Of a stretch of DNA of 64,000 nt, positions 1,404-42,599 are shown piece after piece. The stretch is from NCBI GenBank assembly GCA_016186765.1, contig JACPLD010000001.1, positions 42,560 through 106,559 of the forward strand, written 5' to 3'. Source of the stretch: Candidatus Kaiserbacteria bacterium. GTDB lineage: Bacteria > Patescibacteriota > Minisyncoccia > Phycocordibacterales > UBA2100. The translations under genes and the position numbers were made by a program. The notes under the pieces were generated by a model. The model worked only from the letters and a program-made list of their open reading frames with translations. It did no database searches and had not been told where the DNA came from. Numbering within the stretch: the first letter of the stretch is position 1; each line of letters opens with the position of its first letter.

Positions 1404-1532
1404 CTTCTCGCGATGGCTGACTTGTTCTCGAGAAGCCCCGAAGGAAACTTTGGGGCTCTCATTTTATGTAAGGCGTTGTGTTATACTTTCGCACTACCTA
1501 CCCCTACTGACCGTGTGGGGAGGGTTTGCGTT

Positions 1533-8731: not shown

Positions 8732-9994
8732 GTGAAGCGAGAGGACATTAAAAAAATCAAGCTACCGGATTCAGCTGGCGTGTATCTCTTCAAGAAGGGG
8801 AGAAAGATCCTGTACATCGGCAAAGCCGCGTCCTTGAAGGATCGCGTCCGCAGCTACTTTGCGACGGATCTCGTACAGGGGAGAGGGACGCGCATTGTGG
8901 GAATGGTGGCCGAGGCGACGTCGGTCTCATGGCAAAAGACGGATTCCGTCCTTGAAGCACTCATGCTCGAAGCGAACCTCATCAAGCATCATCAGCCGCC
9001 GTACAACGTCGACCAAAAAGACAACAAGAGTTGGAACTACGTCGTCATCACAAAGGAGGATTTTCCGCGCGTTCTTGTCGTGCGTGGGCGCGGACTGTTT
9101 CAAAATTATGGGTTTCGTAAACCCTTACATATTAGTGGTTTACGAAACCCCTACATTGTTGGGCCGTACCCGCATGGTGGCCAGCTTCGAGAGGCAGTCA
9201 GAATGGTTCGCCGGATATTTCCATTCAGAGACAAGTGCACTCCACGTGTGGGCAAGTCTTGTTTCAACAGGCAGATCGGTCTCTGCCCGGGGGTGTGCAC
9301 CGGTGAGATATCGAAAGAAGAATACGCTCGAACCATTCGCAGTATTTGCGAACTATTTTCTGGGAACTTTAAGGGCCTCAAACGGCGTCTTGCTCGGGAG
9401 ATGAAGGCAGCAGCAACACGCGAAGATTTTGAACAGGCAGAAAGCTTCCGGCGGCAGATCTCTGCTCTCGAACATGTTCGTGATGTTTCGCTCATCAAAG
9501 ATGAATTCAGGCATTCATACGGCGGCCCTTCGACTTCGCTCAGGGCAAGCGGGACGCGCATTGAGGCGTTTGATGTTGCGCATATGGCCGGGGAAGAGAC
9601 GGTGGGCGTCATGACCGTGGTTGATAATGGCGAGCCGTACAAAGCGGCATATAGAAAATTCAATGTCCGGACCGCGACAAACGACGACGTGGCTGCGCTC
9701 AAAGAAATTTTGTCACGCCGCTTGAATCACACTGAGTGGCCTCTGCCTCGTGTGTTTGTCGTTGACGGAGGCCGTGCGCAGGTATGTGCTGCAGAACGCA
9801 TCTTGGAGAAGGTCGGGGTAATGATTCCAGTTATCGGCGTCGTGAAAAATGAATTCCATCGCCCCGAGCGTCTGATTGGAGACGAACGCGCAATTCAAGC
9901 CTTCGAGCGCGATATTTTACTCGCTAACAGCGAAGCACATCGCTTTGCTGTCGCATATCATAGGAAAAAGCGACAGCAAAGAAGTATCCAATAA
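8732..9994 (+). CDS. uvrC: excinuclease ABC subunit C, short form lacking the C-terminal HhH domain
   Basis: N-terminal GIY-YIG (GVYLFKKGRKILYIGKAASLKDRVRSYF), UvrBC-interaction and RNase H-like endonuclease region (RVFVVDGGRAQV..), 420 aa; GTG start. Confidence 0.85.
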   Translation: MKREDIKKIKLPDSAGVYLFKKGRKILYIGKAASLKDRVRSYFATDLVQGRGTRIVGMVAEATSVSWQKTDSVLEALMLEANLIKHHQPPYNVDQKDNKSWNYVVITKEDFPRVLVVRGRGLFQNYGFRKPLHISGLRNPYIVGPYPHGGQLREAVRMVRRIFPFRDKCTPRVGKSCFNRQIGLCPGVCTGEISKEEYARTIRSICELFSGNFKGLKRRLAREMKAAATREDFEQAESFRRQISALEHVRDVSLIKDEFRHSYGGPSTSLRASGTRIEAFDVAHMAGEETVGVMTVVDNGEPYKAAYRKFNVRTATNDDVAALKEILSRRLNHTEWPLPRVFVVDGGRAQVCAAERILEKVGVMIPVIGVVKNEFHRPERLIGDERAIQAFERDILLANSEAHRFAVAYHRKKRQQRSIQ

Positions 9995-11116: not shown

Positions 11117-11189
11117 GGGCCGGTAGTTCAGTGGTAGAATGCCTCATTTGCAATGAGGATGTCGCGGGTCCGATTCCCGCCCGGTCCAC
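11117..11189 (+). tRNA. tRNA-Ala (anticodon TGC)
   Basis: Manual cloverleaf: acceptor GGGCCGG/CCGGTCC with the G3:U70 Ala identity pair; D-arm GTTCAGTGGTAGAAT; anticodon stem CCTCA/TGAGG with loop TTTGCAA; T-arm GCGGG-TCCGATT-CCCGC; discriminator A. The 3' end is CC then C, so CCA is not fully encoded. Confidence 0.8.
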
Positions 11190-12694
11190 CCGATTTGATT
11201 TGACGAAGAATGCAACCCGCGCGCGGCGGAGCCGCGCGCATGGAGTGGCATTTCCGCAAGGAAATGCCACGGCTTTCCGAATTCCCCCGCCAGAATTCCC
11301 GCCGCTATGCGGCGGTTCGAGCCTATGTCCATCAGAAAATCTTTCATCCCCGAAAGATTTTCTGCCTTAATGAGATTTTCGGCTTGGTTGGCCTCTAAAA
11401 TCCAATTACGCATGAGTTCGAGCCAATGATTGCCTTTGCGTTCAAAATCAGTCAATTTTTCCTCCAGAGTCTTCTTTTCCGACATCAGCGCGTTCTTGCG
11501 CTCCAAGTACTCGCCAAGTTCCAACGCCTCTGCGAGATACGCATCTGTGAGCCGCTCCAAACGCGCTGCAATGGCGGAAATATCATTTTTGAGATTTTGA
11601 ACGAAAAGCCCGGACGATTGGCGGGATTCCGTTTGCTCGCTTTCGAGGCGAGCAATATATTTGTCCCGCCATTCGTCAGGCAAAGAAACTTTTTGACACA
11701 TGGTTTGCACTTGTTTCGCCAATTCTTCTTCCCGCAAAAAGCGAGTTTGGGAACATTTTTGAGTGCGGCTCTTGAAGGTACAGTGGTAGTAGTGATACAC
11801 ACGACCACTCCGTTTAATCTTCCTTTCCGCCGTAATCGCATAGCCGCACTCACCGCACGTTGCAAAACCGAGAAATTGGAAGTTTTTTGGTCCTCGCTTT
11901 TTGCGGGGCTTTCCATTGGCGACAAGTGCTTCCTGTATCTTGTCAAAAAGTTTCTTTGTAATCATTGGCTTGTGCGATCCGGCATGCACCTCGCCCCGAT
12001 AGCGGAAATGGCCGTAGTAAAACGGATTGTCGAGTATGTGAGAAATCGAAGCGAGGGCGAGGGGCTTGCCGGTCTTGCCAACCAAACCGACAAAAAACAT
12101 TTTGCGCTGAATCCCAGTGAGCGTGAACTGCCCCGTAGCAAAAGCCCCTAAACACTCCTTTACTTTGCCAAAGGTTTTTCTATCAGGTTCAATCGTCCGA
12201 AGTCGCGGCTCGTTGAAATATCCGAGAGGGGCTTTTGCCGATAACTCACCACGGCGTATCTTTTGGCGAATACCGCGCAAAATGTTTTCTCGCAAATTGT
12301 CGGTGTAATATTTTGCTTGACCGAACGCCACAGACAACATGAATTTACCCTGTGGCGTCGGCTCAAACCAAAATGTAGGGAATTTTAGCGTGGTAATTTT
12401 GCCAGTGTCCACTAAATAAATCACTCTGCCGCCGTCTACGCTGTTGCGCGCCAATCTATCAGGGTTCCACGCTAAAATTCCCTGTGCGGTGCCTTTTTCA
12501 ATTTCGCCAAGCATTTCGTTAAATACTTCACGACCCGGCTCCTTGGCGGTTTTCGATTCGTAATATTCTTTTACCACGAACAGATTTTGTTGCTTGGCGA
12601 ATTCCCGAAGCTCCGTTAGCTGCGCCTCAATACTCAAAACTTGGCGTTCTTCGTCCTCGCTTGATTTACGGCAATAGATAAAATATTTTGTCAT
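11144..12694 (-). CDS. large serine recombinase (resolvase catalytic domain, recombinase domain, zinc ribbon, coiled coil); 3' end uncertain because the ORF reads through the 133-bp inverted repeat and antisense into tRNA-Ala
   Basis: MTKYFIYCRKSSEDEERQVLSIEAQ.. catalytic Ser region; Cys cluster CGECGYAITAE..YHYYHC; long coiled-coil tail. Start taken at MTKYFIY (12694). The last ~45 codons lie inside inverted-repeat copy A. Confidence 0.85.
   Translation of the reverse strand: MTKYFIYCRKSSEDEERQVLSIEAQLTELREFAKQQNLFVVKEYYESKTAKEPGREVFNEMLGEIEKGTAQGILAWNPDRLARNSVDGGRVIYLVDTGKITTLKFPTFWFEPTPQGKFMLSVAFGQAKYYTDNLRENILRGIRQKIRRGELSAKAPLGYFNEPRLRTIEPDRKTFGKVKECLGAFATGQFTLTGIQRKMFFVGLVGKTGKPLALASISHILDNPFYYGHFRYRGEVHAGSHKPMITKKLFDKIQEALVANGKPRKKRGPKNFQFLGFATCGECGYAITAERKIKRSGRVYHYYHCTFKSRTQKCSQTRFLREEELAKQVQTMCQKVSLPDEWRDKYIARLESEQTESRQSSGLFVQNLKNDISAIAARLERLTDAYLAEALELGEYLERKNALMSEKKTLEEKLTDFERKGNHWLELMRNWILEANQAENLIKAENLSGMKDFLMDIGSNRRIAAGILAGEFGKPWHFLAEMPLHARGSAARGLHSSSNQIGWTGRESDPRHPHCK
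11186..11318. repeat. inverted-repeat copy A (133 bp), a perfect reverse complement of 12856..12988; starts at the CCACC core that ends tRNA-Ala
   Basis: Base-by-base comparison: ccacccgatttgatttgacgaagaatgcaacccgcgcgcggcggagccgcgcgcatgg...ccgccgctatgcggcggttc equals the reverse complement of 12856..12988. Confidence 0.9.
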
Positions 12695-12855
12695 AGCTTC
12701 GGGTTGAAAAAGCACCGCACCTTACACCGACAATTTGCAATCTCATTATATATCAAATCTGATTCGCGTTTCGCCTTTTGCTCTTGGCGAAATGCGAAAC
12801 CGAAATGTATTTTGTCATCGGCTCATGCGCGAAGCGCGTCCCATGCTTGCATGGG

Positions 12856-31141: not shown

Positions 31142-32524
31142 TTAAAACGGTGCTTCCTGCTCCACTTCCGCCTCCGGCGTAAAGTCGCCGAAGTCACTCT
31201 TGTCGATGGAGAGGAAGGTCGTACGCTGCTCGTCGAAGCGAAGCTCGATCCTCCCGGTAGGACCGTTCCGATGTTTTTCTACCAAAATCTCGGCGATGCC
31301 GGGACGGTCGGAATTTTCGTTCATTTTGTCGTCGCGGTGAATGAACATTACGACATCGGAGTCCTGCTCGAGGGAACCCGAGTCGCGAAGGTCTGAAAGA
31401 CGCGGCCGCCCGCGCCGCTGCTCGACGGCGCGCGAAAGCTGTGAGAGCGCAAGCACTGGCACATCGAGCTCTCGCGCCATCGCCTTAAGCGAGCGCGAAA
31501 TTTCTGTGACCTGCTGCACCATCGAGTCGCTGACTCGTGTGTACGAGGGTGTGATGAGCTGGAGATAATCGATGATGACAAGGCCGAGGTCCCGTTCCAC
31601 CTTGAGGCGGCGTGCCACCGAGCGCATCTGCAGGACGGTCGAGGAGGGCTTGTCGTCGATGTAGATCGGGGCCTCTGAAAGTACGCTCAAGCCCGCCTGA
31701 AGACGTCCGAATTCCTCGTCGCTCCTAATTTTTCCCGTGCGCAACTTCCACGAATCGACGCCGGCTTGCGCCGCAAGCATGCGATCGACGAGCTGCTGCG
31801 AACTCATTTCGAGACTAAAGATCCCAACCGATGTGCCGTGCTTCGTTGCCGTCTTTCGCGCGATGTCGAGGGCAAGTGCGGTCTTTCCCATGGAAGGGCG
31901 TGCCGCGAGGAGAATGAGATCGGACTTCTGCAAGCCAGCGAGAAGATTGTCGAGCTGCGTGAAGCCAGTAGGAATGCCGCGCAAAGTTGCTTCGTGCTTC
32001 TGCAGATGCTCGAGCCGCTCCCACGCTTCGGTGAGCTCGTCTTTGATCGCGCGGAACGAGCGGAGCATCGGTGTTTGCGAGACGCTGAAGACGGCCGACT
32101 GCGCCTCGTCGAGCGTCGTTGCAATGTCCTTATCTTCCTCGAAGCCGAGCTCATGGATTTTCGCAGCTGCATCGATGAGGCTACGCAACACGAACTTCGT
32201 CTGCACGACCTCGGCATAGTGGCGGGCGCTTCCGGGTGAGGCAGCGGCAGAAACGAGCTCGGAAAGGTAGGCTGCGCCGCCGATCTCCCCGAGAAGTTTG
32301 CGCTGCTTGAGCTTACCCGAGACTGTCACCACGTCGATGGGCTCGCCCTTGCTGTGTAGGCTAAGCATCGCATCGTAGATGGTGCGGTGCTTGCCCACGT
32401 AGAAGGAGTCAACACCGACGACGTCGGCGACTTCGTACATCGCGTTTTGGTTTAGCATGAGTGCGCCAAGCAGCGCACGCTCGGTTTCGGTGTCTTGCGG
32501 CGGGACGCGCAAAGGCTTGTTCAT
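31142..32524 (-). CDS. dnaB: replicative DNA helicase DnaB
   Basis: N-terminal DnaB domain (PPQDTETERALLGALMLN), RecA-like core with Walker A (ARPSMGKTALAL), 460 aa, no intein. Confidence 0.9.
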   Translation of the reverse strand: MNKPLRVPPQDTETERALLGALMLNQNAMYEVADVVGVDSFYVGKHRTIYDAMLSLHSKGEPIDVVTVSGKLKQRKLLGEIGGAAYLSELVSAAASPGSARHYAEVVQTKFVLRSLIDAAAKIHELGFEEDKDIATTLDEAQSAVFSVSQTPMLRSFRAIKDELTEAWERLEHLQKHEATLRGIPTGFTQLDNLLAGLQKSDLILLAARPSMGKTALALDIARKTATKHGTSVGIFSLEMSSQQLVDRMLAAQAGVDSWKLRTGKIRSDEEFGRLQAGLSVLSEAPIYIDDKPSSTVLQMRSVARRLKVERDLGLVIIDYLQLITPSYTRVSDSMVQQVTEISRSLKAMARELDVPVLALSQLSRAVEQRRGRPRLSDLRDSGSLEQDSDVVMFIHRDDKMNENSDRPGIAEILVEKHRNGPTGRIELRFDEQRTTFLSIDKSDFGDFTPEAEVEQEAPF

Positions 32525-32589
32525 GAGAGCATCGTACCACGCGTATTTTCCGCTGCTCGTTCACCGATGGAGGCAGCTTTGTTCCTTTT

Positions 32590-33702
32590 GTGTGGAAAAG
32601 GGTTGTGGACTTGACCAGTTGTGTTGCTTTTGATACAACGTATGCCACACTATCACGGATAGTCAAATGCGCTGTATTTATGCTATCTTTTGCCCCGAAA
32701 ACGGTCACCAAAGAATTGCTCGCAGGTCTTCCTGAGCGCTCGCGGAAAGTTCTCATTGATCGTTACGGCCTTTCTCCAAAAGGAGAGCGACGCACACTAG
32801 ATGCTATCGGGAAGGAGTATGGCATTACTCGCGAGCGTATTCGGCAGATCGAGAACCACAGCCTTTCGGTGGTGCGGGAATCAGAGAGCTATGCGGCGCA
32901 GGTGGTCGCGCTGGAGGACCTGAAACGCGCGCTGCATACGCTCGGCGGCATCATTGCCGAGCAAACGATTCTTGAGCACGTCCCAAAGGGCGAGTCTGAC
33001 CACAATCACGTCATTTTCCTCCTCACGGTCGGCCATCATTTCGCCGACCGTCGCGAAGACGCAAATTTCAAAGCGCGATGGCACGTCGACGAGCAGCTCG
33101 CCGAGGCAGTTGAGCGCGCACTCTCCGCTCTCTACGAATCGATCGAAACGAGCCGCCTCATGCCTGAGGAAGAATTCGTCGAATTCTTCGCAAAGCACCT
33201 GCGCGAACAGGGAATAAAGAACCGCTCCCCGGAGGTGATGCTCCGCTGGCTTTCGATATCGAAGCGCATAGGAAAGAACCCGCTCGGCGAGTGGGGCAGG
33301 ATCGAATCGCCACACGTGCGCATCAAGAATACGCGCGACTTTGCCTATCTGACGTTGAAGCGGCACGGCTCTCCGATGCACTTCACCGAGGTCGCGAAGA
33401 GTGTTGAGAAGCTCTTCAACCGTCCTGCGCATCCTGCGACGACCCACAACGAACTCATCAAGGACAACCGATTCGTTCTGGTCGGCCGCGGCCTCTATGC
33501 GCTTCGGGAGTGGGGCTACGAGCCCGGTGTAGTGCGCGATGTTATCAAAGGAATCCTCGCCCGCGACGGCGCACTCTCGCGCGAAGAAATTGTTGAGCGG
33601 GTGAAACGCGAGCGCTACGTGAAGGATGCAACGATCGCCGTAAATCTCCAGAATCCGATGTTTGTACGACTTCCCGACGGCAAATACACACTTTCAAAGT
33701 AA
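32590..33702 (+). CDS. putative transcription regulator with an N-terminal sigma-70 region-4-like HTH and a C-terminal HARE-HTH-like domain
   Basis: LLAGLPERSRKVLIDRYGL..RTLDAIGKEYGITRERIRQIE resembles sigma region 4; the C-terminal FTEVAKSVEKLF..LVGRGLYALREWGY resembles HARE-HTH; the true start may be the internal Met at 32680. Confidence 0.45.
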   Translation: MWKRVVDLTSCVAFDTTYATLSRIVKCAVFMLSFAPKTVTKELLAGLPERSRKVLIDRYGLSPKGERRTLDAIGKEYGITRERIRQIENHSLSVVRESESYAAQVVALEDLKRALHTLGGIIAEQTILEHVPKGESDHNHVIFLLTVGHHFADRREDANFKARWHVDEQLAEAVERALSALYESIETSRLMPEEEFVEFFAKHLREQGIKNRSPEVMLRWLSISKRIGKNPLGEWGRIESPHVRIKNTRDFAYLTLKRHGSPMHFTEVAKSVEKLFNRPAHPATTHNELIKDNRFVLVGRGLYALREWGYEPGVVRDVIKGILARDGALSREEIVERVKRERYVKDATIAVNLQNPMFVRLPDGKYTLSK

Positions 33703-33764
33703 TGACCAAATTCCAAGAGACAATAACCAAAGGAACTCTTTCCGTGTTTTCCTCATTTTGGTGA

Positions 33765-35249
33765 TTGTTTCTTGAGTTTTGGAGCTTCCTCAATGATAGT
33801 ATTGAGGTCATGGCTTTTCAAATTCCTGGCGTCGGGGAGGAGCGAGAGCGACAGCAGCAGTGGGGACTTGGCTCGCATGTCCTGCGCGGTATCGTTGCCG
33901 AGATAGTCAGCCTCGATCTAAAGGTATTCGTCGAAGGAACGATCGGTAACCTCCTCGGCATCTCGCGCGGCACCTTCCTCACTTCGATTTTTATCGGACT
34001 CCTCTTATCGCTCTGGGGCTTGATCCCGAATCTTCCGTTCTTCATCTTCGCGTGGGTAGTGGGGACTATGCCGATCTGGATCTTGCCTGCAGCAGTAGGT
34101 GGCGCTTGGAAGGCCTGGATCTGGTACGTGCAGGCATACTTTATTACTCGCCGAGAGCCCTTACTCCTTGAAGTAAAAATGCCTCGCGAGCTCGTCAAAT
34201 CTCCTCGCGGGATGGAGCTCGCGCTTGCACAGCTGTGGATACTCTCTGGCGAGACGACGTATTTCCACCGTAAGTGGCTCGGCCAGGTGCGTCCCGTCTT
34301 CTCTTTCGAGATCGTGAGCTTCGGCGGCGATGTTCGCTTTTACATCTGGCTGTGGAAAGCGTACCGGAAGGTCGTCGAATCGGCCATCTATGCGCAGTAC
34401 CCTGAAGTAGAAATCGTCGAGGCGGAGGACTACGCGATGAAGTACGTCTACGATCCTTCGAAACACGCGGTATTCTGCACCGACTACCGCTACGAACCAC
34501 GCAATGACGCCTATCCAATAAAGACCTACATCGAGTTCGAGCTCGATGAGGATCCGAAGGAAGAATATAAGGTTGACCCGCTCGCACAGGTGATCGAGCG
34601 CCTAAGCTCACTCGGGCCCGACGAGCAGATCTGGCTTCAGATTGTTATCTCGTTGGACAACGAACAGAGACGGAAGCCGGGGGGACGATATTGGGAGACG
34701 GAACCCCGCTTCCGAGGTATTGCGGAGGCAGAAGTCGACAAGCTCCGCAAGTCGATCATAGGAGATTTTGAGAAGCCGGGGCAGGAATGGAGACGCTACT
34801 CGCGCGTGGCACTGTATCGCGTTACCGAACAGATCAAAGCGATCGAGCGCAATATGGGTAAACATCCCTACCACGTCGGGATGCGCGGAGTATGGATCTC
34901 GAATCCGGAGAATTTTGGCCCGCAAGGCTTTAACAGCATGCGTTGGATCTGGCTTCCCATGGGGAATCCGCAATACCTGAATCAAATGCGTCCACGTCGC
35001 TGGCACACACCCTTCGACTATCCTTACCAGGATCTCTGGGACTTTCGTTGGAACCTTCACGCCGAGCGTTTTTTTGATTGCTACCGCAGACGCGCGCACT
35101 TCTATGCGCCGTACACGCTTCCCGACAATGTTATGTCGACGGAAGTTATAGCAACATTCTGGCATCCCATCTCGACAGCGATCGCATCGCCCGGCGTGCA
35201 GCGAATTCCGGCGAAGAAAGCGCAGCCGCCACCGAATTTGCCAAAGTAA
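33765..35249 (+). CDS. hypothetical membrane protein (N-terminal TM helices plus a large Trp/Tyr/Arg-rich soluble domain)
   Basis: Long ORF, hydrophobic N-terminal third, no recognisable domain. Confidence 0.5.
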   Translation: MFLEFWSFLNDSIEVMAFQIPGVGEERERQQQWGLGSHVLRGIVAEIVSLDLKVFVEGTIGNLLGISRGTFLTSIFIGLLLSLWGLIPNLPFFIFAWVVGTMPIWILPAAVGGAWKAWIWYVQAYFITRREPLLLEVKMPRELVKSPRGMELALAQLWILSGETTYFHRKWLGQVRPVFSFEIVSFGGDVRFYIWLWKAYRKVVESAIYAQYPEVEIVEAEDYAMKYVYDPSKHAVFCTDYRYEPRNDAYPIKTYIEFELDEDPKEEYKVDPLAQVIERLSSLGPDEQIWLQIVISLDNEQRRKPGGRYWETEPRFRGIAEAEVDKLRKSIIGDFEKPGQEWRRYSRVALYRVTEQIKAIERNMGKHPYHVGMRGVWISNPENFGPQGFNSMRWIWLPMGNPQYLNQMRPRRWHTPFDYPYQDLWDFRWNLHAERFFDCYRRRAHFYAPYTLPDNVMSTEVIATFWHPISTAIASPGVQRIPAKKAQPPPNLPK

Positions 35250-35252
35250 GTT

Positions 35253-35302
35253 AGCCACTAGCCATTAGGGTTTAGGGTATAGTGTATTTCACTAGTGGCT
35301 AA
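35253..35302. promoter_or_regulatory. family-1 promoter module upstream of mltG (AGCCACTAGCCATTAGGGTTTAGGGTATAGTG ... CACTAGTGGCTAA), with a -10-like TATAGT 28 nt before the ATG
   Basis: Read directly. Confidence 0.5.
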
Positions 35303-35310
35303 TTATCTTC

Positions 35311-36345
35311 ATGCAGTCTTTCAAGGAATCTCTCGAGCACTTCTTCGATCGAAGCAGCGCCTCCCTCCTACACATCTCCGAGCGGTGGCGGGTCCACGCG
35401 AATCGCCGCACGCTGCTTGCCCTCATCTTCGGAGGTACGATCGTGCTCACGCTCTACATTGGTGTGGTGCAGCCGCCGGAGAGGTTTCCTGTCGATACGC
35501 TCGTGACGATCCCGCAGGGAGCTACGCTTTCGGAAACAGCCGAATCGTTCCAAAGAGAAGGAGTTGTCCGCTCCAGCGTCGCGCTAAAATTTCTCCTCAC
35601 GCTTTCGGGAAAACAGGACGAGATACATGCGGGCGACTACCTGTTCAAGGAGCCAAAGAACATGTTCGTTGTTGCGCGCGCGATCGTTATTGGCGCCTAC
35701 GGTCTTGAGCCCACGCGCATCCGCGTTCCAGAGGGTGCGACAACCGCGAAGATGGCAAGAATCTTTGGATCGCAACTTCAGCGATTCGACGAAGAACGCT
35801 TTCTCAAGAACGCCCAGCCGCAGGAAGGGTACCTCTTTCCCGACACGTACTTCTTTCTTCCCAACGCAACCGACGAGCTTGTTCTCCTGACGATGCGACA
35901 GAATTTCGACGCGCACGTAGCGACGATCCAAGGAGTGCTCGAAACCTTCGGGAAACCGCTCAACGACATTGTCATCATGGCGTCGCTCCTCGAACGAGAA
36001 GCCGAGAACACAGAGGATCGCCGCAAGATCGCCGGTGTCTTGTGGAACCGCCTCGATCGCGACATGCTTTTGCAGGTCGACGCTGCCTTTATTTACACGC
36101 TCGGAAAGGGAAGTTTCGAGCTAACGATTGAAGACCTTTCGAGCGACGATCCATACAACACGTACGTGTATAAGGGGCTACCGCCTGGTGCAATCGGCTC
36201 GCCCTCGCTCGATTCCTTGCTTGCCGCCGTGACGCCGGTCGAGCACAACTACTTGTACTATCTCGCCGATCGGAACCATGTCACGCACTACTCGAAAACG
36301 TACCAAGAACATCTGCGGAAGAAGAGGTTGTATTTGGGATCGTAA
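35311..36345 (+). CDS. mltG: endolytic murein transglycosylase MltG (YceG-like)
   Basis: N-terminal TM segment, then YceG domain motifs (LLEREAENTEDRRKIAGVLWNRL, DDPYNTYVYKGLPPGAIGSP). Confidence 0.8.
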   Translation: MQSFKESLEHFFDRSSASLLHISERWRVHANRRTLLALIFGGTIVLTLYIGVVQPPERFPVDTLVTIPQGATLSETAESFQREGVVRSSVALKFLLTLSGKQDEIHAGDYLFKEPKNMFVVARAIVIGAYGLEPTRIRVPEGATTAKMARIFGSQLQRFDEERFLKNAQPQEGYLFPDTYFFLPNATDELVLLTMRQNFDAHVATIQGVLETFGKPLNDIVIMASLLEREAENTEDRRKIAGVLWNRLDRDMLLQVDAAFIYTLGKGSFELTIEDLSSDDPYNTYVYKGLPPGAIGSPSLDSLLAAVTPVEHNYLYYLADRNHVTHYSKTYQEHLRKKRLYLGS

Positions 36346-36422
36346 AAGACACAAGAGACAAGATACAATAACCAAACTAGTTTGGAGCTTGTTTCTTGGT
36401 GTTTGGTTATTACACTGTGCCG

Positions 36423-37475
36423 ATGGCAACAGTGTTTGTAGGACTTTCGGGTGGCGTCGATAGCGCGGTTGCGGCCGCGATTCTCAAACAGCAAGGCCAC
36501 GATGTCACTGGCGTGTTCATAAAAATTTGGCAACCCGAATTTATCGAGTGCACCTGGCGAGAAGATAGACTCGACGCGATGCGGGTAGCCGCCACTCTCG
36601 GCATCCCACTGCGCGAAGTGGACTTCTCCGAAGAATATAAACGGGAAGTCGTGGAAAACATGATCGCAGATTATGCGCGAGGCATCACACCGAACCCCGA
36701 CGTCGTTTGCAATCGTGCGATCAAATTCGGGCAATTCGCCATGTGGGCTCGTGAGAATGGTGCCGAGTACGTGGCAACGGGGCACTACGCCCGCCTACGC
36801 CAAGGCTCCGGCGGGCAAGCCCGCGTGGAATTGTTGCGAGGTGCAGATAGAAACAAAGACCAGTCGTACTTTCTCTACGTGCTAACGCAGGAGAATCTCA
36901 CGCGCACCTTATTTCCTATCGGCGAGCTCACGAAGCATCAGGTGCGCTCGCTCGCAAAAAAGTTCAGATTGCCAAATGCCGAGAAGCCTGACAGTCAGGG
37001 CATTTGCTTTCTCGGAGATGTCACGATGGACGAATTTCTTGCCCGATTCATTCCGCTTGAGCGAGGGGTTGTGCTCGACATGACAGGTACCATAATCGGG
37101 GAGCACCAGGGTGCCGCGCTCTACACGGTAGGGCAGCGGCATGGGTTTATGGCTCGAAGTTCGGAGGAAAAGGCAAGAGAGCACTACGTTGTTGCAACTG
37201 ACACTCGCGCAAATACCGTCACCGTATCTCCGAATCGATCCGATGCCGCGCGCAAGGAGGTAGCTTTGGAGCACGTGTACTGGATAGAGCCGCAGCAACT
37301 CCCGCTTACGGCGGATGCACAGGCACGATATCGAGAAGCACCGGTTCGAGTACGTGTCGAAGAAAGAGCCGAAAAAATGAGCGCTATTTTTTTCGAACCC
37401 CACATTGCAGCGCCGGGTCAGTCACTTGTCCTCTACGAAGGAGAGCGCTGTCTCGGAGGCGGAATCATTTGCTAG
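36423..37475 (+). CDS. mnmA: tRNA-specific 2-thiouridylase MnmA
   Basis: VFVGLSGGVDSAVAA PP-loop and the conserved MnmA body (NPDVVCNRAIKFG, YVATGHYARL). Confidence 0.85.
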   Translation: MATVFVGLSGGVDSAVAAAILKQQGHDVTGVFIKIWQPEFIECTWREDRLDAMRVAATLGIPLREVDFSEEYKREVVENMIADYARGITPNPDVVCNRAIKFGQFAMWARENGAEYVATGHYARLRQGSGGQARVELLRGADRNKDQSYFLYVLTQENLTRTLFPIGELTKHQVRSLAKKFRLPNAEKPDSQGICFLGDVTMDEFLARFIPLERGVVLDMTGTIIGEHQGAALYTVGQRHGFMARSSEEKAREHYVVATDTRANTVTVSPNRSDAARKEVALEHVYWIEPQQLPLTADAQARYREAPVRVRVEERAEKMSAIFFEPHIAAPGQSLVLYEGERCLGGGIIC

Positions 37476-37484
37476 AATGTATCC

Positions 37485-38348
37485 ATGAGTACTGTGGGAT
37501 TCGCGGGCCGTTCGCTGCGTGCGCCGGTGAATGTGCTGATAACAAAGGCTGACGGTGAACAGGAACCCTTCGACCCGGAGAAATTACTCGCATCGCTGGA
37601 ACACTCCGGCGCATCCGCAGCAATCTGCGATCGCATTGTCTCCCACATCTTGGAAGAGTTGCGTCCCGGTATGACAACGGAGGAGATCTATCGACACGCG
37701 TACGAGATGCTGCGAAGGGAGGAAGAGCAGCCTGTTGCTGCGCGTTATTCGGTAAAGCGAGCGCTCTTCGCACTTGGCCCCTCCGGTTTTCCGTTCGAGC
37801 AATTTTTAGCGGAAGTTCTGCGCGCGCATGGATGGAGCGTACGCACGGGCGTTGCGCTCACGGGACGTTGTGCGCCGCACGAAGTCGACGTGTTCGCAGA
37901 GAAGGGTGGGCGGCGTGTAGGTATTGAGGCGAAATTCCACAATGAGCCCGGCGGAAAAACCGATATCAAAGACGCGCTCTACGTGAAAGCACGGTACGAA
38001 GATCTTCGCAACTCTCCCGATACCTCGTCGCGGGTAGACGAAGGCTGGCTCGTCACCAACACGACGTTCACTCGAAACGCGATCCGCTACGCGCAATGCT
38101 CGAACCTCACGCTCATTGCATGGGATTATCCGCGTGAGAACAACCTCATGCAGATGATAGAAGAAGCACGTGTGCATCCACTCACCTGTCTCACCACGCT
38201 CACCGAGGGCGAAAAGCACAGACTCCTCGACAATAAGATCGTGCTATGCAAAAGCATTTCCTCACCGCACCTCTTGAGCGAATACGGTGTAAAGCCCGCA
38301 CGCATTCCACAGGTTCTCTACGAAGCACAACGCCTGTGTGGCGTTTGA
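37485..38348 (+). CDS. ATP-cone domain fused to a restriction-endonuclease-like (PD-(D/E)xK) domain
   Basis: N-terminal ITKADGEQEPFDPEKLLASLEHSG..ICDRIVSHILEEL resembles ATP-cone (NrdR/RNR-like); central HEVDVFAEKGGRRVGIEAKF resembles an Mrr/PD-(D/E)xK catalytic core. Confidence 0.5.
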   Translation: MSTVGFAGRSLRAPVNVLITKADGEQEPFDPEKLLASLEHSGASAAICDRIVSHILEELRPGMTTEEIYRHAYEMLRREEEQPVAARYSVKRALFALGPSGFPFEQFLAEVLRAHGWSVRTGVALTGRCAPHEVDVFAEKGGRRVGIEAKFHNEPGGKTDIKDALYVKARYEDLRNSPDTSSRVDEGWLVTNTTFTRNAIRYAQCSNLTLIAWDYPRENNLMQMIEEARVHPLTCLTTLTEGEKHRLLDNKIVLCKSISSPHLLSEYGVKPARIPQVLYEAQRLCGV

Positions 38349-38397
38349 ATTCACACATTTGCCTTTTGCCCTTTGCTTTTTGCCTTAGAATTAAGGT

Positions 38398-38922
38398 ATG
38401 CCTACTCCCGAAAGCTTCTTGGATCCGAACATTGTCGTTTTTGGGAAACTTCTGCTTGCGATGGTGCTCGGCGGCATCATCGGGACTGAGCGCGCCGTCA
38501 TCGCCAAGCAAGCTGCGGGCACGCGCACGTTTGGGCTCGTCTCGCTCGGCGCATGTCTTTTTATCGTTGTAGGGAGCTATGTCGACACCGCCTACCTCGG
38601 GATTCTTTCTTTTGATCCGCTGCGCATCGGCGCGGCCGTTATTATGGGCATCGGCTTTTTGGGCGGGGGGCTCATTATCTTTCGAGGCGACTCACTCCAT
38701 GGCGTGACGACAGCCGCGGGCCTCTGGATCGTCTCTGGGATCGGCATGGCCGTGGGTTTTGGCATGTACAGCGTTTCCATCTTCGCGACACTCCTCGCGC
38801 TCATCATGTTCACCGGCATGTGGTACGTGGAAAATCGCTTCAAGCACTGGTTCGAAGATCACGAGCTCGTACGGCCAGATCATCAGAACGAGACACAAAA
38901 TCACACTACTAGCACGTCATAA
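38398..38922 (+). CDS. mgtC: MgtC/SapB family membrane protein
   Basis: LLLAMVLGGIIGTERAVIAKQAAGTRTFGLVSLGACLF, typical MgtC N-terminal domain. Confidence 0.75.
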   Translation: MPTPESFLDPNIVVFGKLLLAMVLGGIIGTERAVIAKQAAGTRTFGLVSLGACLFIVVGSYVDTAYLGILSFDPLRIGAAVIMGIGFLGGGLIIFRGDSLHGVTTAAGLWIVSGIGMAVGFGMYSVSIFATLLALIMFTGMWYVENRFKHWFEDHELVRPDHQNETQNHTTSTS

Positions 38923-38946
38923 GTCTCGAGTACTTCCACTTACGAA

Positions 38947-39762
38947 GTGCGGCGAACGGGTTATACTTCGCTGATGCCGAGAGGATACGTGCGCCGCACG
39001 AGAGGGCTTTATAATCCGAAAGACGGTGAGCCGTTTCGCATAAGCCGCTCGAAGATCGATCTCTTTTTGGAATGCCCACGCTGCTTCTGGCTCGATCAGC
39101 GTCTTGGCGTGAAGCGCCCGGAGTGGCCCGCATTTTCCTTAAACAATGCCGTCGACGAGCTTTTGAAGCGAGAGTTCGACATCCATCGCGCCAAAGGCGA
39201 GCCTCACCCTCTCATGAAGACTTACAAGGTTGATGCGATCCCGCTCAAGGACCCGCGCATGGACGAGTGGCGCGATGCGATGCGCCGCGGCGTTCAGTTC
39301 CACCATGCGCGGACGAATTTGATACTCCGCGGCGGCGTGGACGATGTGTGGGTCACGCCCCAAAACGAGCTCGTCGTCGTCGATTACAAGGCGACAAGCA
39401 AGAAGGAGGAAGTCTCGCTCGATGGCTACTGGCAGCAAGCGTATAAGCGACAGGTTGAAGTGTACCAATGGCTCTTACGTAAGAATGGGCTCACGGTCTC
39501 CGATACCGCATACTTTGTCTACGTGAACGCAAAGAGCGACGTAGCAGCTTTCGACGGCAGACTTGAGTTTGACGTAAGGCTTCTTTCGTACAAAGGCGAT
39601 GATTCGTGGATCGAGCCGACGATTCTTAAACTCGCGGAGTGCCTCCGTTCAGAATCTATTCCCGAGCGCTCCAAAACATGCGAATACTGTGGGTATCGGG
39701 AAGAAGCGGGCAAAGAGTTGCAAGCGCGTGTGAAGAGAGAAACCAAAAGTCTTGGCATATAA
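38947..39762 (+). CDS. PD-(D/E)xK nuclease superfamily protein, Cas4/RecB-exonuclease-like with Cys cluster
   Basis: N-terminal CPRC plus C-terminal C..C.YC cysteines (Fe-S-like spacing); central VVVDYKAT..QVEVYQWLL nuclease core. Confidence 0.5.
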   Translation: MRRTGYTSLMPRGYVRRTRGLYNPKDGEPFRISRSKIDLFLECPRCFWLDQRLGVKRPEWPAFSLNNAVDELLKREFDIHRAKGEPHPLMKTYKVDAIPLKDPRMDEWRDAMRRGVQFHHARTNLILRGGVDDVWVTPQNELVVVDYKATSKKEEVSLDGYWQQAYKRQVEVYQWLLRKNGLTVSDTAYFVYVNAKSDVAAFDGRLEFDVRLLSYKGDDSWIEPTILKLAECLRSESIPERSKTCEYCGYREEAGKELQARVKRETKSLGI

Positions 39763-39770
39763 TCATAACG

Positions 39771-40031
39771 ATGAAGACGTTTGCAGAAAGGGTTCGCGCA
39801 GTCGTTCGTAAAATCTCGAAAGGGAAGACCATGACCTACGCGCAAGTCGCGCGTGCCGCCGGTAGGCCCCGAGCTGCTCGGGGGGTAGGTGCTATCATGC
39901 GAAGCAATTACGACGAACGCATTCCGTGCCATCGTGTCGTTCGCTCGGATGGCAAGCTCGGTGGATACAATCGCGGTGGCACGGGACGCAAGCGAACGAT
40001 TTTGAAGAAAGAAGGTGTGTATGAGTGGTGA
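39771..40031 (+). CDS. MGMT family protein (methylated-DNA-protein-cysteine methyltransferase DNA-binding domain)
   Basis: MTYAQVARAAGRPRAARGVGAIMRSN..IPCHRVV active-site region. Confidence 0.7.
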   Translation: MKTFAERVRAVVRKISKGKTMTYAQVARAAGRPRAARGVGAIMRSNYDERIPCHRVVRSDGKLGGYNRGGTGRKRTILKKEGVYEW

Positions 40032-40614
40032 GAAGTACGAGAAGATGAAACAGATTCGGGATGAGGTGGTCGCGCTTCAAGGTGGACTGGCGGATTACCG
40101 GCGGGAGAACAACTACCACGCGGTCTTGGGGGAGGGAAGCCATGATGCGAAAATTATGTTCATCGGTGAAGCGCCGGGACAGAACGAGGCGAAAACGGGG
40201 CGACCTTTTTGTGGCGCTGCGGGCAAACTTCTCGATCAATTGCTCGAAGGAATAGGCGTCCCACGCGATAGTGTCTACATCACCAACATCGTGAAGGATA
40301 GGCCGCCGGGAAATCGCGATCCCTTGCCAAGCGAGATCGAGCTCTACGCGCCCTTCCTCGACAGGCAGATCGAAATTATCCAGCCAAAGTGCATCTCGAC
40401 GCTCGGCCGCTTCTCGATGGAGTACATCATGCGAAAGTTTGGTCTCTCATTCGAGCTCGAGCCCATCAGCCGCGCGCATGGCAAAAGCTACGAAGCAGAG
40501 ACCTCGTGGGGCCCGATGAAAATCGTCCCCCAATACCATCCCGCCGCCGCGATTTATAACCAATCCCTCGTCGAAACCCTCAAAAAAGATTTTCAGATCC
40601 TAAAAACCATCTAG
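40021..40614 (+). CDS. udg: uracil-DNA glycosylase, family 4
   Basis: IMFIGEAPGQNE..GRPFCGAAGKLL..HPAAAIY motifs of type-4 UDG. Confidence 0.8.
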   Translation: MSGEKYEKMKQIRDEVVALQGGLADYRRENNYHAVLGEGSHDAKIMFIGEAPGQNEAKTGRPFCGAAGKLLDQLLEGIGVPRDSVYITNIVKDRPPGNRDPLPSEIELYAPFLDRQIEIIQPKCISTLGRFSMEYIMRKFGLSFELEPISRAHGKSYEAETSWGPMKIVPQYHPAAAIYNQSLVETLKKDFQILKTI

Positions 40615-40619
40615 CCACT

Positions 40620-40647
40620 ATATTCTAATTCGCGCGAATTAGAATAT
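40620..40647. repeat. perfect 28-bp palindrome CTATATTCTAATTCGCGCGAATTAGAATATAG between convergent genes
   Basis: Read directly; no adjoining U-tract, so it is a bidirectional terminator or a protein-binding site. Confidence 0.4.
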
Positions 40648-40755
40648 AGGCATGAATACCTCCGCAAGGATTTTCAGGTGTTGAAAGAGATATAAAAAGC
40701 CACCCCCTCGCGCAAGACGAGAGTTTGGCTCTTTGTCCCGCGAGGGGGATATGGA

Positions 40756-41031
40756 TCACGCCGTTTGCTGTCTGCGTTTCGCTAATCGCGCGTTCATGGC
40801 GTCCGCGTCAATGTTACCGGAGAGTGGTGCGATAGGCACTTCCGTAACTTCGGCAAGTGCCTGCTTCGCAGCGTCTTCGTCGGGGAAGTAATAACATGAG
40901 CATCCCCATGTTCCGCCCAACTGTAGGTAATCTGCGAATTCGCTAACGCTGCGGCTCACATAGAATTTGCCAACCAGGGCAGCGATGCCACTCGGCGCAC
41001 GCCTGACTCGCGGTTTGTCTCTGTTACACAT
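40756..41031 (-). CDS. hypothetical protein
   Basis: ORF MCNRDKPRVRRAPSGIAALVGKFYVS..; no family recognised. Confidence 0.35.
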   Translation of the reverse strand: MCNRDKPRVRRAPSGIAALVGKFYVSRSVSEFADYLQLGGTWGCSCYYFPDEDAAKQALAEVTEVPIAPLSGNIDADAMNARLAKRRQQTA

Positions 41032-41164
41032 GGCCGTATCCTCCGTTTGCCGCGCAGATAGTACAACACGGTGCAACGTTCGTCAACCAAAACTCCTCTG
41101 CAAGGATTTGAGGATGTTGACGAAAGTGCTTGGAGTTACCGCGTAGTCGAGGTATAAAGTCGCC

Positions 41165-41338
41165 ATGAACTGGAACCTGTTTGGCCTGAACCCGAAGTTC
41201 AAGGATTTCATCGAGAAATATCCCAATAAAACTGTTTTAGGAGTTGCTTGGGCGATGTATTGGCGGTTCCTGGTACTAGTACTGGCACTTGAGATGATTA
41301 TTGGAATTATTTTTGTCCTTTCGAATATTATTTTCTGA
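41165..41338 (+). CDS. possible small membrane protein (57 aa), not in the ORF track
   Basis: ATG..TGA ORF MNWNLFGLNPKFKDFIEKYPNKTVLGVAWAMYWRFLVLVLALEMIIGIIFVLSNIIF with a clear TM helix; its 3' end overlaps the convergent peptidase gene. Confidence 0.3.
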   Translation: MNWNLFGLNPKFKDFIEKYPNKTVLGVAWAMYWRFLVLVLALEMIIGIIFVLSNIIF

Positions 41339-42599
41339 GAAGGGTGAGTGATGCATCCTTATTTGTGTGCGGGCCGATGATGGCGAGGTTGAGGCGCTCG
41401 GTACGTAGCAGGTCGCGGGCGACGCGTTCTATGTCGGCGGCGGAGACAGTGTCAATGCCTTCGAGCATCTCTTCGAGCAGGCGGACGCGAGCGAGATTGA
41501 TCATCGAGGTCGCCGCGTGATTCGCTATCTCGTCGCTCGTTTCAAGCGAGAGCGTCATGGTGCCCTTGATGTACTGCTTTGCTTTCGCAAGCTCCGCCGC
41601 CGACACCTTCGTCTTCTTTATCTTCTTAAACTCATCGAGAATCGTCTTCACCGTCTTCTCGAGCTTCGCGTGCTCGACGCCGGCTTGTACGGCGAGATAG
41701 CCGGTGTCGGGGTAGCGTTCCACCCACGCGTGCACGGAGTAGGCGAGACCGCGCTTCTCACGCACTTCGAGGAAGAGGCGGCTGCTCATGCCCGCGCCGA
41801 GGATGGTCGAGAGCACCGCGAGCGCGTATTCATCTTTGTGTAAATACGGATACGCCGGCACGCCGAGGATGAAGTGCGTCTGGTCAGTCTTCTTTTCTTT
41901 TATCGAGACTCTTGGTTCATTCTGTTCCGAGACGAACGCGATGAAGTTCGGAGGATTGCCATGCGGGAGCCTCCCGAAGTCTTTCTTTATTCTCGCGAGC
42001 ACTTTCTTTTCGTCGAATGAGCCGGCGATACAAACGACCGTATTGAGCGGCGTGTAGTTGCGCTTCAGGTAGGCAGCAAAATCTTTGCGCGTGAACGAGC
42101 GAATGTTCTCCTTTGGCCCAAGGATTGTTCGCCCGAGCGGATGCTCTTTGCCGAAAAGGAGTGCCTCGAACACATTGTCCACTGTGCGCATCGGCATGTC
42201 TTCGTACATGTCTATCTCTTGAATAATTGCACCGCGCTCCTTCGTTATTTCCTTTTCAGGCAGCCTCGAGTTGAGAAAGATGTCGCTAATGACGTCGAGT
42301 GCAGTATCAAGGTATTGCTCCGAGACTTTGGCAAAGTAGGCGGTGCGCTCTTTGGCAGTAAAGGCGTTGTAGACTGCACCAATGCCGTCGAGCTCCTCGC
42401 TGATAGCTTTTGCGCTCGGCCGCTTTTGGGTGCCTTTGAAAAACATGTGCTCCAAAAAGTGCGCGAGGCCGTTCTCATGACCGTTTTCATAGCGTGAGCC
42501 CGTGCCCGTCATCACGATTACTGTCGCCGTCCTGTTCTCCGGCATTGGTGCGAGCACGATACGCAAGCCGTTTTTCAACGTATGAGCGATGTATTGCAT
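41328..42599 (-). CDS. M16 family zinc peptidase (insulinase-like)
   Basis: HFLEHMFFKGT inverted zinc-binding motif (HxxEH), ~424 aa. Confidence 0.8.
   Translation of the reverse strand: MQYIAHTLKNGLRIVLAPMPENRTATVIVMTGTGSRYENGHENGLAHFLEHMFFKGTQKRPSAKAISEELDGIGAVYNAFTAKERTAYFAKVSEQYLDTALDVISDIFLNSRLPEKEITKERGAIIQEIDMYEDMPMRTVDNVFEALLFGKEHPLGRTILGPKENIRSFTRKDFAAYLKRNYTPLNTVVCIAGSFDEKKVLARIKKDFGRLPHGNPPNFIAFVSEQNEPRVSIKEKKTDQTHFILGVPAYPYLHKDEYALAVLSTILGAGMSSRLFLEVREKRGLAYSVHAWVERYPDTGYLAVQAGVEHAKLEKTVKTILDEFKKIKKTKVSAAELAKAKQYIKGTMTLSLETSDEIANHAATSMINLARVRLLEEMLEGIDTVSAADIERVARDLLRTERLNLAIIGPHTNKDASLTLLRK

Follow-up and report, generated by a model that had tools for sequence, protein, structure and literature searches.

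An ATP-cone/Mrr-type nuclease fusion of Candidatus Kaiserbacteria: catalogued family, gene neighbourhoods and possible housekeeping role

ATP-cones sense adenine nucleotides and are known as the allosteric switches that control ribonucleotide reductases and the NrdR repressor. A gene that joins such a cone to a nuclease core, with DNA-repair genes following it, raises the question of which process a nuclease with a built-in nucleotide sensor would serve. An earlier note on the 64-kb stretch of Candidatus Kaiserbacteria DNA analysed here (the window) described positions 37485-40614 as a nuclease/DNA-repair neighbourhood, and proposed that the fusion protein might cleave DNA under ATP or dATP control as an effector of defence or repair. 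All five genes of this stretch were found at the expected coordinates, on the + strand.

The ATP-cone nuclease and its family

The gene at 37485..38348 (+) encodes a 287 aa protein composed of an ATP-cone, an AF1548-Mrr-type PD-(D/E)xK nuclease core and an HhH-like C-terminal domain, and is an exact match to GenBank MBI2610391.1, annotated as a 'restriction endonuclease' of Candidatus Kaiserbacteria. Its ATG at 37485 lies 9 nt past the mnmA stop, and close relatives whose alignment covers 100% of the query share its N-terminal extension. The cone has been detected by Pfam at residues 19-92 (37539..37760, +; E 4.9e-10, 40.3 bits against a cut-off of 25.8), followed by the nuclease core at residues 101-211 (37785..38117, +), which is delimited both by Pfam Mrr_cat (PF04471; E 2.4e-10, 41 bits against a cut-off of 21) and by alignment with PDB 1Y88, and by an AF1548-like helical domain at approximately residues 232-287 (38178..38345, +). 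Residues 106-286 match 1Y88, which is AF1548, with an E of 6e-26. With both Pfam domains above cut-off and this structural template, the fusion of an ATP-cone to an Mrr/restriction-endonuclease-like core that had been read from the sequence is well founded. The AlphaFold2 model has a pLDDT of 91.2 and a pTM of 0.75, and structural comparison has placed NucS and restriction endonucleases among the neighbours of the protein, revealed a resemblance of the C-terminal domain to the HhH modules of RAD51B and NusA, and matched the cone to that of NrdR.

The catalytic D, E and K residues, whose integrity the earlier note had wished to see checked, are all present as D135 (37887-37889), E148 (37926-37928) and K150 (37932-37934, all +) and are invariant in three family alignments (A1, A2 and A4); together with E105 and H132/E133, they are also invariant across approximately 100 aligned sequences from two phyla. 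The equivalent residues of AF1548, D38/E51/K53, have been predicted to be catalytic in papers that predict a nuclease in this structural-genomics protein (PMC1821046, PMC1874628). Five cysteines (C129, C205, C235, C255 and C285) are conserved in the bacterial family, and in the cone K21, G24, F29 and K33 are invariant or nearly so among diverse members. A cone-only profile run against PDB sequences was dominated by designed helical repeats, with ribonucleotide reductases and NrdR marginal (E 0.08-0.7), and likeness to NrdA was judged by hhalign in place of this search. The alignment of the window cone with residues 1-100 of E. coli NrdA reached 91% probability, the activity-site residues K9/E15/K21/T55 of NrdA aligning with identical residues, while A/S and Y stand in the places of R10 and H59. 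Judged from these alignments, adenine-nucleotide binding by the cone is putative, and nucleotide gating of the nuclease, as previously suggested, may be regarded as a reasonable idea.

The fusion is an already-known architecture, annotated in GenBank and provided with its own Pfam model for the C-terminal domain (AF1548-like_C), and the window gene is an ordinary member of a large catalogued family whose NCBI product names are 'ATP cone domain-containing protein' and 'restriction endonuclease'. The protein carries the ATP-cone, an Mrr_cat core with the D...ExK residues and AF1548-like_C, and shows full-length collinear homology to database family members at 40-90% identity. At 50% identity, the family falls into 1,230 clusters with E<=1e-3, of which 433 reach values below 1e-30, and almost all members are full length at 270-295 aa. 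Close relatives share 70-90% identity over 94-100% of the query, while identity to 150 cluster representatives is 36-60%. At least 596 GTDB species encode a member, mostly Patescibacteria and Bacteroidota, and a Chlamydiota plasmid is also a carrier. NCBIfam has no model for the ATP-cone nuclease, and literature searches combining the ATP-cone with nuclease, restriction endonuclease, the architecture or the NCBI product name retrieved no paper on the family.

Neighbouring genes in the CPR and in other phyla

Paceibacteria (CPR) carry the family as a core gene that is present in single copy and evolves slowly. Across 70 CPR loci, identity to the window protein has a median of 48.2%, compared to 48.0% for MnmA and 49.1% for AlaRS, and the gene order is fixed as sigma-DUF8128-YceG-MnmA-X-(MgtC)-(PDDEXK)-(MGMT)-(UDG)-AlaRS, where X is the ATP-cone nuclease. 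The tRNA 2-thiouridylase gene mnmA (36396..37475, +; identified by Pfam) is the conserved upstream neighbour, present in 67 of the 70 loci and at a distance of <=250 nt in 40 of these 67. Directly 3' of the ATP-cone gene, at 38398..38922 (+), lies a gene for an MgtC/SapB-family membrane protein (Pfam MgtC, E 2.3e-30), which had been missing from the earlier note; an MgtC gene occurs downstream in 37 of the 59 CPR loci with enough flank. Within 4.5 kb on the 3' side of the ATP-cone gene, the Cas4-like nuclease has been detected in 36 of the same 59 loci, MGMT in 30 and UDG in 15. A promoter and terminator scan of positions 32000-41500 gave counts equal to chance expectation and is thus uninformative on operon boundaries. 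The ATP-cone gene and the repair genes have a lineage-specific synteny in common, and probably also a long co-directional transcription unit.

The repair genes themselves are largely as had been described. The gene at 38974..39762 (+; alternative start 38947) encodes a stand-alone Cas4/Dna2/EXO5-like PD-(D/E)xK exonuclease of 262 aa (GenBank MBI2610393.1), which matches PDDEXK_1 with E 2.2e-14 and Pfam Cas_Cas4 with 28.4 bits against a cut-off of 22.7, and whose nearest folds are Dna2, Cas4, AdnAB, RecE and EXO5. It displays D123/D124, D137-x-K139 and Q160...Y164 motifs and the invariant cysteines C34, C37, C236 and C239, and these RecB motifs, with four cysteines bracketing the core, are the hallmarks of the RecB/Cas4/Dna2-type Fe-S ('iron-staple') nucleases, although the spacing is CxxC...CxxC rather than the C...CxxC(x5)C of Cas4, Dna2, AddB-AdnB and EXO5. 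Identification as a true CRISPR Cas4 has been rejected, given a TIGR00372 score of 37 bits against a cut-off of 65, the context and the cysteine spacing. No CRISPR array or repeat was found in the window by TRF or direct-repeat search, an Rfam scan returned nothing but a tRNA, and PADLOC detected no cas model besides Cas4, and no cas1 or cas2, among the 65 window ORFs, in agreement with the earlier view of a Fe-S-like, Cas4-like nuclease standing alone. In the CPR it is usually followed by MGMT, here a single-domain O6-alkylguanine-DNA alkyltransferase at 39771..40031 (+) that consists of the MGMT C-domain with its PCHR active site. Its IPCHRVV stretch aligns with the Ada C-domain and the N-terminal domain is absent; with homologues of 84-86 aa, the 86 aa frame is probably the real gene. 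Profile matches above cut-off substantiate both the MGMT-family call (DNA_binding_1, E 1.9e-27; TIGR00589, 73.5 bits against 46.4) and that of a family-4 uracil-DNA glycosylase at 40015..40614 (+; TIGR00758, 191.5 bits against 125.3; 4ZBX match, E 2.4e-49). The latter also bears the GEAPG and HPAA motifs of family 4, while the CxxC, VKC and TAC cysteines that serve as [4Fe-4S] ligands in 4ZBX are replaced by non-cysteine residues, so that all four Fe-S cysteines are lacking.

Outside the CPR, the neighbours differ. Among 95 loci from Bacteroidota, a Chlamydiota plasmid and metagenomes, a TTHA0252-type beta-CASP RNase gene occurs in 45, at a median offset of +891 nt from the start of the ATP-cone gene, usually directly 3' of it and often with stop and start codons that overlap. 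Of the 95 loci, 30 have a P-type cation ATPase gene, with overlapping genes in L084-L086. In Bacteroidota and the Chlamydiota plasmid, the ATP-cone gene is translationally coupled to either the RNase or the ATPase, within clusters of nucleotide-salvage, fermentation and stress genes. Tandem universal stress protein (USP) genes occur in 25 loci, an archaeal-type thymidine/AMP-phosphorylase-like gene in 20, Prs in 15, genes for GAPDH-like, 2-hydroxyacid dehydrogenase and PFK proteins in 11-13, and MgtC with DUF4010 in eight. A related trio of MBL, Prs and thymidine phosphorylase has been reported as microoxia-induced in Bradyrhizobium (PMC6515984). Neither the window nor any of the 70 CPR loci contains the beta-CASP, phosphorylase or Prs partners, while MgtC near CPR copies and MgtC or P-type ATPases near non-CPR copies mean that a neighbour of this kind recurs in both phyla. 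No relative of the window Cas4-like nuclease was found by tblastn near 63 non-CPR homologues, and no MGMT or UDG cluster is among the 22 commonest neighbour families of the 95 loci, clusters that are annotated in part. The survey of homologous neighbourhoods proposed earlier has given a divided answer, with repair genes adjoining the nuclease in the CPR and RNase, ATPase, salvage and stress genes as its partners elsewhere.

A housekeeping nuclease and its alternatives

The reading preferred here, with a probability of roughly 45%, is that of a housekeeping nuclease that would be gated by adenine nucleotides and connected with energy and cation status. Slow evolution as a core gene, within a large catalogued family, points to housekeeping turnover tied to energy state rather than to anti-phage activity. 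By analogy with ribonucleotide reductase and NrdR, binding of ATP or dATP to the cone would alter how the nuclease oligomerizes or how its domains pack, such that Mg2+-dependent cleavage would be licensed only at a particular adenylate status, while the HhH-like C-terminal domain would hold nucleic acid without sequence specificity. Counting against this reading, the HhH domain, together with the NucS and restriction endonuclease structural neighbours, suggests DNA rather than RNA as substrate. The neighbours in other phyla would point to nucleic-acid turnover coupled to energy and cation state, in which endonucleolytic cuts would feed exonucleases and nucleotide salvage; carrying this context over to the CPR orthologue is an assumption.

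A further version of this idea, for which the odds are low, is that the family may supply the combined sensor and effector that sets off a so far undescribed module for nucleic-acid catabolism under energy or Mg2+ stress. Ribosomal RNA is the main store of Mg2+ and nucleotides, and at a particular ATP/dATP status the nuclease might nick RNA of this or another kind, after which the co-translated TTHA0252-type beta-CASP RNase would degrade the fragments, the archaeal-type AMP/thymidine phosphorylase and a Prs-like kinase would recycle the nucleotides, and MgtC or P-type ATPases with universal stress proteins would adjust the cation and ATP balance. CPR bacteria live on salvaged nucleotides, and in them the sensor-nuclease would have turned into a core gene that is constitutive and stays beside MgtC.

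The strongest competitor of the housekeeping reading, though itself rather unlikely, is a structure-specific DNA endonuclease that acts in repair with the Cas4-like exonuclease, MGMT and UDG and is tuned by the dATP/ATP pool. It is favoured because the nearest CPR nucleic-acid enzymes are DNA-repair proteins, at the frequencies given above; UvrA and UvrC are also encoded in the window, and a restriction-endonuclease core combined with HhH modules like those of RAD51B and NusA follows the same logic as XPF/Mus81/Hef or NucS. The Cas4-like nuclease is nonetheless missing from the tblastn survey of 63 non-CPR loci, and MGMT and UDG from the commonest, partly annotated neighbour families there; in the CPR, MgtC usually stands between the ATP-cone gene and the repair genes, and MnmA is the steadier neighbour. 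Moreover, sigma, YceG and AlaRS belong to the CPR block as well, a housekeeping string at the level of the class, which makes adjacency to repair genes unspecific, and conserved synteny within one class is weak functional evidence either way. The notion of a DNA-repair neighbourhood as a functional unit therefore finds no support beyond the Paceibacteria synteny, and the best reading of the Cas4-like nuclease, MGMT and UDG is a separate set for base-damage and end-processing repair that has its synteny in common with the ATP-cone gene.

Two other roles are improbable. As an anti-phage effector, the protein would sense through its cone a phage-caused ATP/dATP depletion or dNTP surge and respond with indiscriminate DNA cleavage, in parallel to the CARF/SAVED-nuclease effectors Can2, Card1, NucC and Cap4. 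A sensor joined to a restriction-endonuclease-fold effector is an established defence design, some non-CPR copies are located on plasmids or mobile metal-resistance islands, and PADLOC matched the protein weakly with the Mrr-like end of ZorD (E 6.5e-5), which, apart from the Cas4 models for the PDDEXK gene, was its only result for the five genes; on all 65 window ORFs it gave no further cas gene, no CBASS gene and no other credible defence system. Conservation at the level of MnmA and AlaRS, the fixed place in a housekeeping operon, the absence of an adjacent methyltransferase, immunity or other defence gene and the metabolic, transport and stress genes beside non-CPR copies all stand against this role, as does the lack of viral homologues, a phage origin having been rejected with no match in INPHARED (tblastn), IMG/VR or PHROGs. 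The defence effector envisaged earlier is thus disfavoured, and the ATP-cone nuclease is probably not a defence system. Slightly less probable still is a non-catalytic, NrdR-like transcription factor that responds to ATP or dATP and controls adjacent transport and stress genes, its restriction-endonuclease fold and HhH domain binding DNA. NrdR is itself an ATP-cone DNA-binding repressor with a structurally matching cone, the ATP-cone gene comes first in many non-CPR operons, and in L086 it overlaps with the genes of an ArsR-type regulator and of a P-type ATPase, but the full catalytic set is invariant in the sequences aligned, which is unusual for inactivated restriction-endonuclease folds.

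For the window, the result is a modest one, namely a correctly spotted fusion that had already been catalogued. The wider interest lies in the family, which ranks with the better-conserved uncharacterized genes of Paceibacteria, whose gene complement leaves very little to spare. Knowledge of its substrate and gating nucleotide would assign a function to thousands of 'restriction endonuclease' genes, and could show how bacteria with small genomes tie the turnover of nucleic acids to their energy state.

Relation to known systems

Among the closest known proteins, AF1548 of Archaeoglobus fulgidus (COG1787; Pfam Mrr_cat and AF1548-like_C) has 199 aa and is devoid of an ATP-cone; of the five cysteines that the bacterial family conserves, it has retained only three. 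Mrr, a type IV methyl-dependent restriction endonuclease, shares the Mrr_cat catalytic-domain family with the ATP-cone nuclease, which has an ATP-cone instead of the Mrr_N winged-helix and an added HhH-like domain. Assignment as a type IV Mrr has been rejected, with no Mrr_N match and a fixed synteny unlike a defence-island-type distribution. When compared to Can2, Card1, Cdn1 and NucC, the sensor is an ATP-cone and not a CARF or SAVED domain, neither of which was matched in Pfam or PADLOC searches of the protein, and a cyclase, a CRISPR partner and a defence context are all absent. Ribonucleotide reductases and NrdR share the cone, but here the output is a nuclease and not a reductase or a Zn-ribbon repressor; a nuclease under ATP-cone control, if true, would be a new output for this sensor. 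With respect to the database family, the window protein agrees in all three domains and in the invariant residues and does not differ structurally, and it is the genomic context that varies, from the housekeeping string of the CPR to islands with beta-CASP RNase, P-type ATPase and stress genes elsewhere.

Domain architecture and gene string in the window

The ATP-cone nuclease is encoded at 37485-38348 within a string of eight co-directional, tightly packed genes on the + strand (33765-40614), where intergenic gaps measure 9-50 nt and the MGMT and UDG genes overlap. Assignment of the products by Pfam and NCBIfam gives YceG (35311-36345), MnmA (36396-37475), the ATP-cone and Mrr_cat protein, an MgtC-family membrane protein (38398-38922), a PDDEXK_1/Cas4-like nuclease (38947/38974-39762), an MGMT C-domain (39771-40031) and a family-4 UDG (40015-40614). 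At the head of the string, a 494-aa protein (33765-35249) has no Pfam match in the window copy, and its homologue at L003, one of the compared loci, matches DUF8128 weakly. The genes observed in the earlier note are thus confirmed, and its listing was accurate except that it omits the MgtC gene, which separates the two nuclease genes. Exact GenBank entries exist for the ATP-cone nuclease (MBI2610391.1) and the Cas4-like nuclease (MBI2610393.1, "PD-(D/E)XK nuclease family protein"), both encoded on one 227-kb contig. No CRISPR-like repeats were found in the window, and among its 65 ORFs Cas4 was the only cas model matched.

The fusion of an ATP-cone to a nuclease core, as originally read from 37485-38348, has proved accurate. 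Mrr_cat covers residues 101-211 (E 2.4e-10), and D135, E148 and K150, which are invariant in three family alignments, correspond to D38, E51 and K53 of AF1548 from Archaeoglobus fulgidus, for which a catalytic role has been predicted (PMC1821046, PMC1874628). E105, G127, C129, H132, E133, R170, D173, T191, N192 and C205 are likewise invariant in these alignments. The protein combines an AF1548/Mrr-type nuclease whose catalytic set is complete with a canonical-looking ATP-cone and an HhH-like domain. Further fold neighbours are NucS, AspBHI, FokI and MspJI, together with Can2, Card1 and NucC in their nuclease cores. Across the family, five cysteines show wide conservation: C129 and C205 of the nuclease core and C235, C255 and C285 of the C-terminal domain. 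C235 and C285 tend to be retained or lost jointly, and AF1548 has only three of the five. A metal site or disulfides are possible roles for these residues.

Downstream, the MGMT protein consists of a single C-terminal domain of 86 aa, in which the PCHR active site is intact; the N-terminal domain is lacking. The longer ORF that begins at 39639 (130 aa) extends over the end of the Cas4-like gene, and its start is probably not the real one. In canonical family-4 UDGs, four cysteines hold a [4Fe-4S] cluster. The window UDG belongs to family 4 by profile and lacks all four, the CxxC, VKC and TAC positions being non-cysteine when aligned to the S. tokodaii UDG (4ZBX), and it retains the GEAPG and HPAA motifs. 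Together with the Cas4-like nuclease, these proteins plausibly form a small set of enzymes that repairs base damage and DNA ends. The remaining window content is housekeeping, including UvrA, CarAB, UvrC, DnaB, DnaK, AlaRS and an M16 peptidase. UvrA (1413-4160) and UvrC (8732-9994), with carAB between them, lie approximately 27-36 kb from the two nucleases and their repair neighbours, so DNA-repair genes are scattered across the window and not concentrated at 37-41 kb. Elsewhere, a large serine recombinase (Resolvase, Recombinase and Zn_ribbon_recom; 11144-12715, minus strand) abuts a tRNA-Ala (11117-11190), and this junction may mark one boundary of an integrated element.

Distribution of the family and conservation in the CPR

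A word-indexed search returned 2,869 relatives of the ATP-cone nuclease, the best 120 of which are Kaiserbacteria proteins with 70-90% identity. An exhaustive search of 50%-identity representatives gave 1,230 clusters, with E-values below 1e-30 for 433; the proteins almost all measure 270-295 aa and align end to end. Scanning one genome per species, confirmed homologues were detected in at least 596 GTDB species, the best 80 being mostly Patescibacteria/Paceibacteria, along with Bacteroidota such as Cyclobacterium, Kaistella and Owenweeksia. The window gene is a typical case of a fusion that databases already contain in large numbers. Databases name the family "restriction endonuclease", "ATP cone domain-containing protein", "ATPase" or "Holliday junction resolvase", and a literature search found no paper on it; the architecture is therefore known to databases and functionally unexplored.

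Across 70 CPR loci the order sigma-DUF8128-YceG-MnmA-ATP-cone gene is nearly constant, with MnmA upstream in 67 of the 70; at 40 of these it lies no more than 250 nt away. The downstream side was counted within 4.5 kb at the 59 loci whose flank there reaches 3 kb or more, and MgtC occurs in 37, the Cas4-like nuclease in 36, AlaRS in 31, MGMT in 30 and UDG in 15. Unrelated genes have been inserted into the string in some CPR genomes, and one CPR locus (L030) has a P-type ATPase instead of MgtC. The ATP-cone proteins have a median identity of 48.2% to the one in the window, compared with 48.0% for MnmA, 49.1% for AlaRS, 43.3% for YceG and 34.9% for DUF8128. Near-constant order and core-enzyme-like conservation mark the ATP-cone nuclease as a core gene of Paceibacteria that is subject to strong purifying selection; this pattern is not that of a defence gene. 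The 494-aa/DUF8128 protein is the fastest-evolving member of this conserved string.

Partners in other phyla

Outside the CPR, 95 loci were compared (12 Bacteroidota genomes, three look-ups, two plasmids and 80 metagenome contigs), with neighbour families obtained by de novo clustering. The commonest partner, in 45 of the 95, is a TTHA0252-type beta-CASP/RMMBL RNase (PDB 2DKF, E 1e-69), usually directly downstream at a median offset of +891 nt. Next in frequency come a P-type cation ATPase (30), a tandem universal stress protein (25), an archaeal-type thymidine/AMP-phosphorylase-like protein (20; TIGR02645 above cut-off), CusB/HlyD (15), a Prs-type ribose-phosphate diphosphokinase (15), a GAPDH-like protein (13), a 2-hydroxyacid dehydrogenase (12), PFK (11), MgtC with DUF4010 (8) and AAA_28 (7). 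Stop and start codons frequently overlap between the ATP-cone and beta-CASP genes, as in the annotated 4-nt overlap on the Criblamydia plasmid, which also carries phosphoketolase, glycogen phosphorylase and acetate kinase. In eleven non-CPR loci, an 84-aa conserved ORF with no Pfam match lies between these two genes (L119:8864-9118 and ten others). The dominant partner outside the CPR is thus an RNase, then nucleotide-salvage enzymes, inside stress and fermentation clusters, and a cation-transport partner (MgtC or P-type ATPase) is the only theme common to both phyla.

A cassette of nuclease, beta-CASP RNase, phosphorylase-like protein and Prs-type kinase is present in Bacteroidota and on the plasmid of Criblamydia (Chlamydiota), with conserved examples at L084:4390-11657, L087:1972-6597 and L088:2137-14886. 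Its frequent companions are P-type cation ATPase, tandem USPs, PFK, GAPDH-like protein, 2-hydroxyacid dehydrogenase, phosphoketolase and acetate kinase. Adjacent MBL, Prs and thymidine-phosphorylase genes in Bradyrhizobium (bll3115-3117), which are induced by microoxia at the protein and RNA level (PMC6515984), represent a three-gene part of the cassette without the nuclease. In L084-L086, the ATP-cone gene and that of the P-type ATPase share 11-14 nt. In L084 (protein listed by NCBI under Sphingobacterium spiritivorum), L085 (a Saprospiraceae MAG) and L089 (a metagenome contig), two CzcA-type genes and the gene of a P-type ATPase of 873 aa have the same spacing relative to the ATP-cone gene, which overlaps the ATPase gene (approximately 1197-7011 in L084 and L085), a layout which suggests a horizontally mobile cation/metal island.

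No relative of the Cas4-like nuclease was found in 63 of the non-CPR loci by tblastn with the window protein, and the repair neighbourhood named in the earlier note is better described as lineage synteny. MGMT and UDG clusters were absent from the 22 commonest non-CPR neighbour families, of which annotation covered some clusters only.

Possible role and likeness to known systems

A housekeeping, energy-linked role is tentatively the preferred reading, at a probability of 0.45. Adenine nucleotides would gate the nuclease, as the earlier note sensibly proposed, most simply through an altered oligomeric state as in RNR and NrdR, and the enzyme would serve nucleic-acid turnover coupled to energy and cation status. 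REase-fold enzymes usually require dimerisation. With beta-CASP and salvage partners, RNA would be the expected substrate; DNA is suggested by the HhH domain, by the NucS-like fold and by the repair genes nearby in the CPR. These last features would suit a repair nuclease acting together with its CPR neighbours, a less likely reading, against which stands the lineage-bound synteny of those genes. The defence effector also put forward earlier is not supported by the core-gene signature in the CPR and appears very improbable. A non-catalytic regulator is about as improbable in a family whose D135, E148 and K150 are invariant.

Interest remains in how well the gene is conserved in the CPR, and in its accompaniment in other phyla by cation pumps and by a cassette for RNA cleavage and nucleotide salvage. 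The make-up of the non-CPR ATP-cone clusters may resemble that of the DosR dormancy regulon of mycobacteria, which includes USPs, CtpF, PfkB and NrdZ.
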